From the IMG/VR virus record IMGVR_UViG_2718218172_000010: DNA of 64,000 nucleotides; one strand, 5' to 3'. Made by a program: the position numbers. The DNA comes from a virus (taxonomy: Duplodnaviria; Heunggongvirae; Uroviricota; Caudoviricetes). Positions 6,001 through 9,000 of this stretch are shown here, one piece after another (positions within the stretch are counted from its first letter, which is position 1; every line of letters begins with the position of its first letter).

Positions 6001-9000
6001 CAGGAAAATTCGTGGCAACAGGTTTAAAATAGCTGCTCAGTTTTTTACCTGACTTAACGAGCAGGTAGTCCAGAGTGGCACAGGTCGATTCAAAATCGTC
6101 GCTTGCCCACAGGACGACGTCAGGTTCACCGGATGATTTTTTCGCTTTCCGTAACAGGAAGAGTGGTTTTGTGCTCATTGTTTTTTAACCTCAACTCAGA
6201 TTAAAATTCGTTTTGTTCAGTGAATGATCTTGCCGGATACACACTGTTCATAGCCTGCGCCATACGCAGGCTATTTCTTTCAGATTTCACCGTTTAATTT
6301 CATTGCAATCAGAGTTGCCAGAAATCCGGCTTTTTTTTCTGCGGGCAGATTCTTTCCGATGTGAACCAGGCACATTTTTGTGACACCTTCATCAAGTGTT
6401 TTTACGTTGCCTGATGGACCGTCGATATCAACCACAGTGAATGGGGTTTCTTTATTTTCTGTTTTAATCACGTAGCCAATACGCTTTCCTTCCAGATTAA
6501 CCTCGTGAACAATGTCATCGGTAGTTACAACAGTGGCTTCATAATTGGTAATCATGTTTTTCTCCTTAATTAAGGTTGAGCGAATCCCTGCCATTGCTGG
6601 CATAAATTCAGTTTCGAATAGTCAGTTAATTAAAGTTCGTGTGCCATCTGGTCTTTTTCGGCACAATTTTCACTACAATATTTTTTCATTTCCGTCGTTG
6701 GGATAACTCCACGCATGAAATGAAGTGGTCTTTTAATGGTTTTGCTTTCTTCAACGTCTTTATTGCAAAGGTGGTAACCACATTTTATTTTCATGATTTT
6801 CTCCTGTGAGGCCTGCGGGAATTTCTTCATCTACAGGCCGGATAAATTTCTCAACAGGGAAACATTCACCAGCTACTTTTTGCTCAATAGCTGCGGCCTT
6901 GCATTCAGATTCGGAGTTATAAATTCCGGTAACAACATCCTGAGTTTCGCCTGATGTCAGAAAAACGGTCATGACAAGAGCGAACAAAGTGTTCATTTAT
7001 TTTACTCCCGGTCGCAATTGCAAACTGAATAATGGCCTGCTCAAACATTTCTTCATCCTGTAAAAATACAGCGATGGCGAATTTACTCTGTGCGGCACTG
7101 ATAGCTGTTAGATGATTACGTTCCATAACGCCACCTGAGCTACTTTATTCCTCGGTAACTTTATAACCATTAATTTCCAGAAATGTAGCGATATCCTGAT
7201 ATGAAAATTTTTCCAGAAGCTCATGAAGACGCCCCTCTGTTGAAAAGTATTCTGCTATTTCTTCGGCTCCAACCATTTCAATAATAGCGTCGTTATCTTC
7301 AACTGAATCAATCAGGTCTGATAACTTCACGCCATTGACTTCAATACATAATTTTTGATTGTAATCGGGCTTAACCTGTACATCTTTTGCTGTTATTTCA
7401 AAACTTATCTCTTGCATATAATTCTCTTCTTGGTTACTAAGTGAATTTTGTGATGCGGTGCCTGGTGCCTCCAGGTGACTGCAACCAGTTAACAATTACA
7501 GTCGGCTTTCCCACCCAAACCAATAAGGACTAACATGACTTTTAACTGTGCCGCGTGCGCTTAGCCGCATTCACCGCATCACAAAATTCACTTTAAAAAG
7601 GGCGGACATCAGCCGAACTTCAAGAAAAAACTGATGCCGCCAAGACTACACACAGCAATGTCGTTATTTACAACCGGAGGCGCACTCCCACCATTTAAAT
7701 TTAACAGACAAAACCGACTCTTTATGGATATCGGAAATGCGCCTTCGTGTTGCGCCCGGTTTTATTTCACCACCTCCGGGCTTTGGTGGCCTCGGCTATA
7801 CCCCTACAGCGAGAATATTGAATTAATCCAAATAATGGATTAGCAAGTATTTCTGGCAAGCCAGCGACGTGCGCCCGTTTCAGTTTTGAATGTCTTGCTT
7901 TTGGTATAAGTCATGGCGGTGAACGTTCCATCCTGGTTGGGGAACACGCCACACACTAGGGATTCGTTGTTGCCGAGGTCGATTTTTTGCATTTTGGAAA
8001 CCCTCACATCTTGTTGTTGCGGATAGAGGCTTCTGCCTGCCAGAGATCCCAGTCGTTGCTGCGTAGAGCCTGTACAGCCTGGCTGTAAGTGATGTCGTAA
8101 CAATCCATCAAATACTGAACTACTTCGTAATGCACCATTTTATCTCTCCCTTTAACGCCGGGTGGCGGAACTAAAACCTACAGCGCCGTGCTGCTTCTGC
8201 AATAATATTAGTTATATTCATATAAGTGATCAACACAAATATGCATTTTATTGATAAAAATGTACTATCGTAATGAAATTTTTAGTGTTTTTTTTGATAA
8301 AAAAGAAAGGTGAGGGTGCAGAGGGGACAAAAAAACCGCCAAAAATGGCGGTTTAGTTACGAGGTTACGGGAGCTATTTCTTCATGCGTTTCTGAGCTGC
8401 CAGCATCTTTTCAAACGCTTCTTTGTAGAGTTCATTCTGACCTTTAAGCCTTTCGATTAGTTTTGCTTTTTCTGATTCGGGTAGGATTTCAAAAAGATCC
8501 AGTAAATCAGCTTGTTGCTTGTTAACCATCCGCCAACCTTCGCCTTCGAAACTTTCGTCATAAGTTCCTGAGGAACGGACGTAATTCATCAGATCAGCTA
8601 AATCAGGCCTCAACTCTTCAGGCTTAACTCTTAGTAATACAGCGAATTTTAATGCTGCATCAGTGTTTAGTGGAGCCTTTCCGTTGAGATAGTGGCTAAC
8701 TGTGGATTGAGTCTCAAAGCCCATTAGCTCAGCAGCAAGCTCCTGAGTCAGTTTGAGCTCTCTTTTTTTGGCATCCCAGACTGCGCGCAGACGCTGCGTA
8801 GCTTCTGGCGATGCGATTTCTTCGCGTTTTCTTCTCATACCACCATCTTATGAACACAACTCATAATCTCAAACTGATATAGGTATTGATCATTTAAATT
8901 AATATAGTTAATATTTTGACAGGCATTACTAAGGTGACCCTTATGACATTAGATGAATATTTGAAAAAAAATCGTGTACGACAGTCTTGTTTGGCTGCAC

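Follow-up and report, generated by a model that had tools for sequence, protein, structure and literature searches.

What is a perfect inverted repeat of 22 base pairs (bp) doing directly behind the gene for a prophage small RNA (sRNA), and just in front of the next open reading frame (ORF)? The question is raised by a stretch of 64,000 nucleotides (nt), here called the window, from IMG/VR record IMGVR_UViG_2718218172_000010, a virus of the class Caudoviricetes. A first-pass annotation, made from the letters of the DNA alone, placed on the minus strand at positions 7439-7655 an RNA resembling DicF, the sRNA of the Qin prophage, followed at once by the repeat.

The analysis reported here gives a two-part answer. 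The sRNA is, judged by its sequence, an ortholog of KilS, which is found in the Rac prophage of E. coli K-12, and not of DicF. The repeat is, by alignment and covariation, the closing helix of a conserved RNA with four helices, distantly and at sub-threshold scores related to the sRNAs STnc100 and PasD. Together, these suggest, with moderate confidence, a KilS-type sRNA whose read-through transcript folds into an STnc100-like domain, with a 22-bp closing helix that is cut by RNase III.

The sRNA is an ortholog of KilS

From its 5' end, the sRNA presents a hairpin, a single-stranded arm that resembles part of the host sRNA RprA, and an intrinsic terminator of the DicF type. Its parts are as follows.

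7595-7691, minus strand: the KilS-ortholog sRNA, about 97 nt, aligned to K-12 Rac kilS, with its 5' end placed by the K-12 annotation
7642-7659, minus strand: the 18-nt block AUUGCUGUGUGUAGUCUU, identical to RprA nt 60-77 (18 of 18 positions in an alignment with K-12 rprA)
7600-7641, minus strand: the terminator hairpin GGCGGCAUCAG...CUGAUGUCCGCCC, the part that resembles DicF (seen in the sequence, the fold and a match to Rfam RF00039)
7595-7599, minus strand: the terminator U-run, five U, which forms the 3' end of the sRNA and matches the annotated 3' end of K-12 KilS

The terminator was seen correctly at first pass. Read in the direction of transcription, the hairpin runs from 7641 to 7600 and the U-run from 7599 to 7595, and the 5' arm of the repeat begins one A later. 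Terminator scanning did not flag it, the loop being larger than the scanner allows. A promoter scan of the window gave no clear promoter for the sRNA.

The noncoding RNA kilS of K-12 Rac (b4833) is annotated at 1418405-1418502. Over those 98 nt, the window copy differs by one substitution and one single-base insertion or deletion. In K-12, KilS was predicted from RIL-seq (RNA interactions read through ligation and sequencing) and confirmed by northern blot as an sRNA from the 5' untranslated region (UTR) of kilR; transcription start site data suggest a promoter of its own, and the partner found reproducibly with it in RIL-seq is yncL (Bar et al., 2021, PMC8175672). By homology with K-12 KilS, and on the strength of its northern and RIL-seq results, the window copy may be expected to be expressed as a discrete, Hfq-associated RNA.

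What, then, remains of the resemblance to DicF? At the gathering threshold, an Rfam scan of the window returned no DicF. A permissive scan did match the DicF model (RF00039) at 7600-7654 on the minus strand, with 41.1 bits against a gathering score of 48 and a local E-value of 1.4e-07. Calibration of the same model gave 76.7 bits for Qin DicF, 72.5 bits for the DicF of phage Tritos, and 39.1 bits for K-12 KilS. Common to the sRNA and DicF are the terminator base (GGCGG.AUCAG / CCGCCC) with its U-run, the position in the operon and the spacer downstream; the loop and 3' half of the sRNA are different.

The first-pass resemblance therefore holds for the terminator base and for synteny, but not for the score, the orthology or the predicted pairing with ftsZ taken up below. 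The further suggestion, that a changed 5' half might give the RNA targets other than those of DicF, was right as to a different specificity, but not in confining the change to one half, since both halves differ. The RNA should be called a KilS ortholog, with a terminator of the DicF type and an arm of the RprA type.

Two other loci carry hybrid sRNAs (L019:4800-4976 and L076:4705-4881), in which a KilS-like 5' part (GUGUAGUCUUUGG) is joined to the loop and anti-Shine-Dalgarno segment of DicF (ACUCCGUGACUGCUCUGCC). Their sequences suggest recombination between the DicF and KilS types.

The arm matches the core of RprA

In the sRNA and in RprA alike, the 18-nt block stands directly 5' of the terminator hairpin, and the AACGA flank is similar as well. 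A permissive Rfam scan scored the RprA model (RF00034) at 29.8 bits against a gathering score of 70, with the consensus GaAUUGCUGUGUGUAGUCUU matched exactly. In RprA, the last 47 nt form a processed isoform that is still active (RprAproc); the 18-nt block is the single-stranded start of this isoform.

Across related prophage copies, ACAUUGCUGUGUGU is kept while the interior of the hairpin varies, as is expected of a functional single-stranded region. The best predicted site for pairing with yncL is the 18-nt block, and RprA is predicted to pair identically. A literature search for KilS together with RprA found no paper that links them.

The repeat closes a conserved four-helix RNA

Listed in the order of transcription, the following parts lie in the spacer that separates the sRNA from the next ORF.

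7434-7598, minus strand: the STnc100-like structured RNA, about 165 nt, filling the spacer (covariance model R1, Rfam RF02076 and fold)
7572-7593, minus strand: the 5' arm of the closing helix P1, starting at 7593, one A after the U-run (repeat search and alignment)
7552-7569, minus strand: the P2 hairpin, UGCGGC-UAAGC-GC(A)CGCG (RNAalifold on 95 family members)
7477-7503, minus strand: the P3 hairpin, 10 bp, with 5 of the 10 pairs changed on both sides in the long-stem subfamily
7461-7475, minus strand: the P4 hairpin, CCUGG-AGGCA-CCAGG, abutting the 3' arm; the invariant signature of the family, used as the search motif
7439-7460, minus strand: the 3' arm of P1, ending 21 nt before the ATG at 7417-7415 (repeat search and alignment)

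A repeat search bears out the first-pass description of the duplex: arms of 22 nt at 7439-7460 and 7572-7593, 100% complementary, 111 nt between them, and an end 21 nt (predicted as about 20) before the ATG at 7417. What did not survive is the picture of a free-standing duplex, as the arms enclose a domain that is itself folded. A fold of the 171-nt element, which the first-pass annotation had advised, gives -68.5 kcal/mol, with z = -5.7 against dinucleotide shuffles; the z-scores obtained for the structure were -4.2 and -5.7. The repeat and the fold are far more than chance would supply.

The Rfam model that comes nearest is STnc100 (RF02076), which matches 7414-7598 on the minus strand with 38 bits, against a gathering score of 47. 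Below threshold too, at 28-34.4 bits, are the matches to this model in the spacer from KilS to kilR of K-12 Rac and in those from dicF to dicB of Qin and Tritos. To collect relatives, viral contigs were scanned for the motif CACCNGGAGGCACCNGGCAC, which recovered more than 100 distinct copies. Their shared architecture has a closing stem whose end is GGUG/CACC, then an AAU junction, P2, a variable middle, P3, and the invariant P4.

An RNAalifold consensus of 95 copies has compensatory changes in 9 of its 19 pairs, and P1, P2 and P4 covary. Three pairs of P2 flip from C-G to G-C between the STnc100-type copies and those of the DicF-spacer type. P4 is invariant but for one covarying pair, GC or UA.

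The closing stem deserves separate attention. In copies behind a terminator of the DicF/KilS type it measures 21-22 bp, and this is so also in some copies that have no such terminator upstream. A species-level genome scan added prophages of Citrobacter, Klebsiella, Raoultella, Enterobacter and Pseudescherichia. The helix keeps a length of about 21-22 bp across prophages of Escherichia, Citrobacter and Klebsiella, and does so with no fewer than six unrelated arm sequences; three examples of the 5' arm are AAGUGAAUUUUGUGAUGCGGUG, AACAGGCUUUGCAAUACGGUG and CAACAGACCUUGCAAUGCAGUG. Pattern matches were found also in metagenome-assembled genomes of unrelated phyla, but some of these failed with the model and the others matched E. 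coli sequence exactly; they are probably chance or contamination.

Covariation in the long helix was measured on an in-register alignment of 12 copies. In P1, 12 of the 22 pairs have changed on both sides, and 95.5% of the cells in the alignment are paired. None of 500 column shuffles attained the observed covariation score, and sliding the partner register by 1-3 columns lowered pairing to 31-41%. Neither ground for refutation named at first pass was borne out: the DicF model does give a hit, below threshold, and in homologous prophages the repeat is present and covaries.

Which molecule is under constraint? Several positions of P1 carry G·U pairs (GU or UG in up to 6 of the 12 sequences), and only on the strand of the sRNA. 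With the covariance model R1, built from the family, the minus strand scores 120.9 bits and the plus strand 23.2 bits. The G·U pairs and this asymmetry mean that the constraint acts on RNA made from the sRNA strand, not on DNA.

Some relatives are arranged otherwise. At L006:3400-3680 (minus strand) the order is reversed: a short-stem STnc100-like structure comes first, then an RprA-like seed and a terminator of the DicF/KilS type, which looks like a composite sRNA gene. The reversed order recurs in L008, L021, L023, L049, L054, L077, L110 and L128 of E. coli and in L162 of Shigella. A degenerate structure upstream of the window sRNA, which would copy this layout, was sought by pairwise alignment and by a covariance-model scan run free of filters; neither found one. 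Two to four STnc100-like copies are present in each of eight phage contigs (L016, L029, L030, L032, L050, L059, L104 and L125), some only a few hundred bases apart.

Probable processing by RNase III

The first-pass annotation proposed that the duplex, on a read-through transcript, would be an RNase III substrate. For the Qin homolog, processing by RNase III is already known: the full-length dicBF RNA is cut to give a DicF of 72 nt (Faubladier, 1990, as reported by two citing papers). The 72-nt end falls 19 nt past the end of the 53-nt DicF. The additional 19 nt stop at ...AAAGUGAAUUUUGUGAUGU, inside the Qin 5' arm and four pairs from the inner end of this homologous arm. Carried over by homology to the 3' end of the 72-nt DicF, the cut in the window would fall after 7576.

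In the window, the 22 Watson-Crick pairs of P1 stack on the 5-bp P4. This gives the roughly two turns (at least 20 bp) of uninterrupted double-stranded RNA by which an RNase III site is judged. By analogy with Qin, RNase III very probably acts on this duplex, and the proposal is well supported by the 72-nt DicF as the citing papers describe it; its extension to the window copy is an extrapolation.

Where would such a cut lie relative to the genes? Conservation ends precisely with the 3' arm. Behind it stand, in different prophages, dicB, kilR, the 90-amino-acid (90-aa) ORF of the window, or other short ORFs, some of them membrane-like, and in most copies the start codon comes 14-26 nt past the helix. 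The products of dicB and kilR inhibit division, and kilR is normally silenced through Rho and NusG. The simplest interpretation makes the helix a point of processing and control that lies between an sRNA and a harmful gene.

The mechanism proposed for the window has two parts. In the first, an Hfq-associated KilS ortholog would end at its DicF-type terminator; in its arm, the RprA core takes the place of the sequence with which DicF binds ftsZ, and this would direct the RNA to targets different from those of DicF, possibly overlapping those of processed RprA. In the second, transcripts that read through the terminator would fold into the STnc100-related domain of four helices. RNase III would cut the closing helix of this domain, which has grown to about 22 bp (two turns of double-stranded RNA), as in Qin dicBF. 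Such a cut might do three things: extend the sRNA by about 19 nt to an alternative 3' end, part the sRNA from the downstream message, and leave a new processed 5' end on the messenger RNA for the 90-aa and Kil-like ORFs, setting its stability or translation.

Several points weigh against this mechanism. The 72-nt figure comes from two secondary sources, and the position of the cut was derived from the difference between 72 and 53 nt. The case for cleavage of the window copy is drawn wholly from homologs. In the dicF-dicB spacer, Gordon et al. (2017) list position 1649470, covered by 26 reads in Δrnc and by 0 in wild type; this is 36 nt past the 3' end of DicF and within the structure, but at such low coverage it is weak evidence. 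Their Rac entry, 1418510, lies upstream of KilS and outside the structure. A later study stressed cleavage by RNase III at the 5' side of DicF (giving a 190-nt species) and did not discuss a downstream site.

The family itself adds another difficulty. Typical relatives of the STnc100 type have a closing stem of only 7-12 bp, and with most relatives short-stemmed, the inner domain must serve something besides an RNase III site. Nor need the arm imply shared targets. It could reflect common recognition by Hfq or by RNase E, and the classical RprA seed, which acts on rpoS, csgD and hdeD, lies at about nt 30-58, upstream of the shared block.

In the literature on RNase III more generally, the main text of Altuvia (2018) makes no mention of dicB or kilR.

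Other readings of the locus

Could the structured domain itself be the product? RNase III would then cut both arms to release a stable STnc100-like RNA of about 125-130 nt, which acts in trans or binds Hfq or another protein. There is precedent in ribosomal RNA, whose precursors are freed by RNase III through cuts in a long closing helix, and the arrangement here is similar. P2, P3, P4 and the GGUGAAU junction are conserved with covariation in copies from both late and early regions; PasD and STnc100 are themselves Hfq-associated sRNAs; and some ten loci join a short-stem copy directly to an RprA-like seed with a terminator, and so have the complete architecture of an sRNA. Yet the searched literature describes no RNA of this size from the dicF-dicB or KilS-kilR spacers, the window copy has no seed and terminator of its own, and its STnc100 score is below the Rfam threshold. 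We consider this reading unlikely, although not to be neglected.

Somewhat less probable is a role in cis that does not need RNase III. Here, the helix would be an element of the 5' UTR that keeps kil-type genes quiet, as a protective stem, a block to standby binding by the 30S subunit, or a hindrance to Rho loading. The distance from helix to the start codon of a small ORF, which is always short, would suit such an element, as would the end of conservation at the arm and the known silencing of kilR through Rho and NusG. The Shine-Dalgarno sequence, however, is outside the helix. Further, a length of about two turns, kept across unrelated arms, and the RNase III-dependent DicF of 72 nt (known from secondary reports) point to RNase III instead.

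The third possibility is that the window sRNA is a functional, if divergent, DicF that still blocks translation of ftsZ and with it cell division. It has the right syntenic position and terminator base (GGCGG.AUCAG...CCGCCC-U5), its local E-value against the DicF model is low, and the L019 and L076 intermediates join a KilS-like 5' part to a DicF loop. DicF, however, carries in its loop and 3' half a segment that pairs with the ribosome-binding site of ftsZ, and this segment, ACUCCG, is absent from the window sRNA.

Pairing was compared by windowed hybridization corrected for accessibility, a procedure adopted after unrestricted duplex folding had returned long, artificial hybrids that did not discriminate. 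Applied to DicF, it recovered the published duplex (nt 32-53 with ftsZ -28 to -7; hybrid -22.7, net -8.0 kcal/mol). For the window sRNA, the best hybrid with ftsZ is only -11.2 kcal/mol, lies upstream of the Shine-Dalgarno sequence at -28 to -14, and is made by the 5' arm. By this in-silico test, the defining function of DicF does not appear to be conserved. As the Rfam score is also under its gathering threshold, and as RIL-seq tied KilS to yncL and not to ftsZ, a functional DicF is very unlikely.

That the repeat works as DNA, as a site for recombination or protein binding or as a boundary between lambdoid mosaic modules, with its RNA structure incidental, is hardly credible and is largely refuted by the strand asymmetry: conservation does stop at the 3' arm, with varied genes behind it in different phages, as at a module junction, but on the opposite strand, or in a cruciform, G·U pairs would turn into A·C mismatches, the model is strand-specific (120.9 against 23.2 bits), and the inner helices covary as well.

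The prophage and its neighboring genes

The window contains E. coli DNA, with 100% identity over the studied stretch to isolates from pigs, such as strain cq9. The prophage is lambdoid and of the Rac type: RalA/ralR, recT, recE, xisR and intR lie on one side of the module, and the repressor, a cro-like regulator, ydaT and ydaV on the other, where the repressor is accompanied by ydaS/ydaT. On the minus strand, the early-left order is repressor, ydaG-like gene, ydaF, sRNA, spacer, 90-aa ORF and a 69-aa ORF with a Kil motif; 3' of the last, the operon continues with DUF1482, ydaE and racC-like genes, then recE.

8374-8838, minus strand: repressor gene
8004-8138, minus strand: ydaG-like gene
7840-7992, minus strand: ydaF-type DUF1391 gene, upstream of the sRNA (Pfam PF07151, E = 3e-29; labeled ydaF by the NCBI pipeline PGAP)
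7424-7431, minus strand: Shine-Dalgarno-like AAGAAGAG of the 90-aa ORF
7145-7417, minus strand: 90-aa ORF in the slot of dicB or kilR (phrog_7311, function unknown; WP_001156286.1, hypothetical in identical strains)
6917-7126, minus strand: 69-aa ORF with an N-terminal Lambda_Kil motif (Pfam PF06301, E = 8e-08, 32.1 bits against a cut-off of 27.6; also PHROG Kil families)

The sRNA had been described at first pass as lying downstream of genes like ydfA and ydfB. The syntenic place is correct, and ydaF and Qin ydfA belong to one Pfam family; the genes actually present are the Rac paralogs ydaF and ydaG. KilS of K-12 lies in the kilR leader of a Rac prophage; the window prophage is of the Rac type, but the next gene after the sRNA is the 90-aa ORF, with the Kil-motif ORF following. 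A homolog of the 90-aa ORF stands behind the same structure in Pseudescherichia.

Some further features of the window may be recorded here. In K-12 Rac (L005), an insertion of sieB, on the opposite strand, separates ydaF from KilS; in the window, 7692-7839 is without sieB, and about 150 nt separate ydaF from the sRNA. The 69-aa Kil-motif ORF is unannotated in the 100%-identical strain cq9, and it overlaps the start of the DUF1482 gene. Three RNAs in the window clear the Rfam gathering cut-off: at 1557-1735 (plus) RalA, which is the antitoxin to RalR; at 14744-14919 (plus) a sok antitoxin from a locus of the hok/sok type; and at 40115-40200 (minus) sRNA-Xcc1. At 9702-10832 on the plus strand lies an intact ORF of 376 aa, for which PGAP gives, in an identical strain, two pseudogenes marked "incomplete" (one for a YdaU family protein, the other for a hypothetical protein) with the middle left unannotated. 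No Pfam domain was found in this ORF, and its middle segment may be an in-frame insertion.

Distribution and significance

The structure is common. It occurs in 4,437 of 5,426 complete E. coli genomes (82%), at a median of two places per genome, and the KilS-type sRNA together with the structure, at 80% coverage or more, in 1,924 genomes. Among the records listed, no annotation lies beneath the matches, save for one dicB coding sequence, and PGAP leaves the unit unannotated. The NCBI pipeline never annotates it because each of the two RNAs scores slightly below its Rfam threshold. This gap would be closed by a wider DicF/KilS model together with one for the spacer.

How much of this is new? 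The observation is borne out and the unit looks functional, but most of the module is already known for the K-12 homologs. The parts that appear to be undescribed are the relationship of the spacer to STnc100, the covariation and conserved length of the helix, and the exact match between the arm and the RprA core. For the dicF-dicB spacer, the relationship to STnc100 was not found in the literature searched.

The unit is of interest because of where it stands, directly in front of prophage genes (dicB, kilR) that stop division and need to be kept silent; a putative RNase III helix of conserved length at this junction would offer a handle on that control. The identity of the arm with the core of RprA suggests a tie, open to experiment, between a prophage sRNA and the host regulon for envelope stress.

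A more general hypothesis may be put forward tentatively, as a possibility that we would not yet defend as a whole. The module might be a mobile RNA-processing cassette of enterobacterial lambdoid prophages, in which cutting of the covarying 21-22 bp helix by RNase III gives a 3'-extended sRNA, frees an STnc100-like RNA and sets the expression of whatever kil-type gene recombination has placed behind it. KilS would then carry the seed of processed RprA, and through it tap, or compete with, the Rcs/RprA regulon.

Comparison with known systems

Phage lambda has leaders, the N-leader rIII and sib, in which a long duplex in the pL operon, just upstream of an early gene, is cut by host RNase III. 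The window duplex has no sequence relationship with these; it differs also in closing a multi-helix domain and in following an sRNA terminator. With RprA, what is common is the 18-nt block and its flank. The remainder of RprA, its 5' hairpins and its seed, is absent from the window sRNA, and the terminator is different.

STnc100 and PasD are Hfq-associated prophage sRNAs near genes of the late region (antiterminator Q, stx2, holin and lysozyme). They share with the spacer the GGUG/CACC stem end, the AAU junction, the C-G/G-C flips in P2, and the invariant CCNGG-AGGCA-CCNGG hairpin. The closing stem is 7-12 bp in STnc100 and PasD, whereas it is 21-22 bp in the spacer type, which scores below the Rfam threshold. 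Every Pas sRNA, PasD among them, is described as carrying its own terminator (Zhu, Shabalina and Storz, 2026 preprint). In the window, no hairpin with a U-run follows the 3' arm; a Shine-Dalgarno sequence follows instead, with an ATG 21 nt past the arm. STnc100 and PasD lie near Q, stx or lysis genes, while the spacer element is the 5' leader of an ORF in the early-left operon.

The Qin DicF region has the same plan as the window: a DUF1391 gene, an sRNA, a spacer and a slot for a division inhibitor, with the same terminator base and a structured spacer. According to the literature on DicF itself, its 5' end is made by RNase E, its 3' end arises by termination or by RNase III, and it binds Hfq. 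The two sRNAs differ in their scores against the DicF model (76.7 bits for Qin, 41.1 for the window), in the lack of the ftsZ anti-Shine-Dalgarno segment in the window RNA, and in its RprA-like 5' arm.

Closest of all is KilS of K-12 Rac, with the same sequence but for two differences in 98 nt, the same terminator, the same Rac position after ydaF, and a structured spacer next. K-12 Rac has sieB upstream and kilR directly 3', whereas the window lacks sieB and has the 90-aa ORF before the Kil-like ORF. The closing helix, which in K-12 Rac has a one-base bulge and one G·U pair, is in the window a perfect 22 bp.

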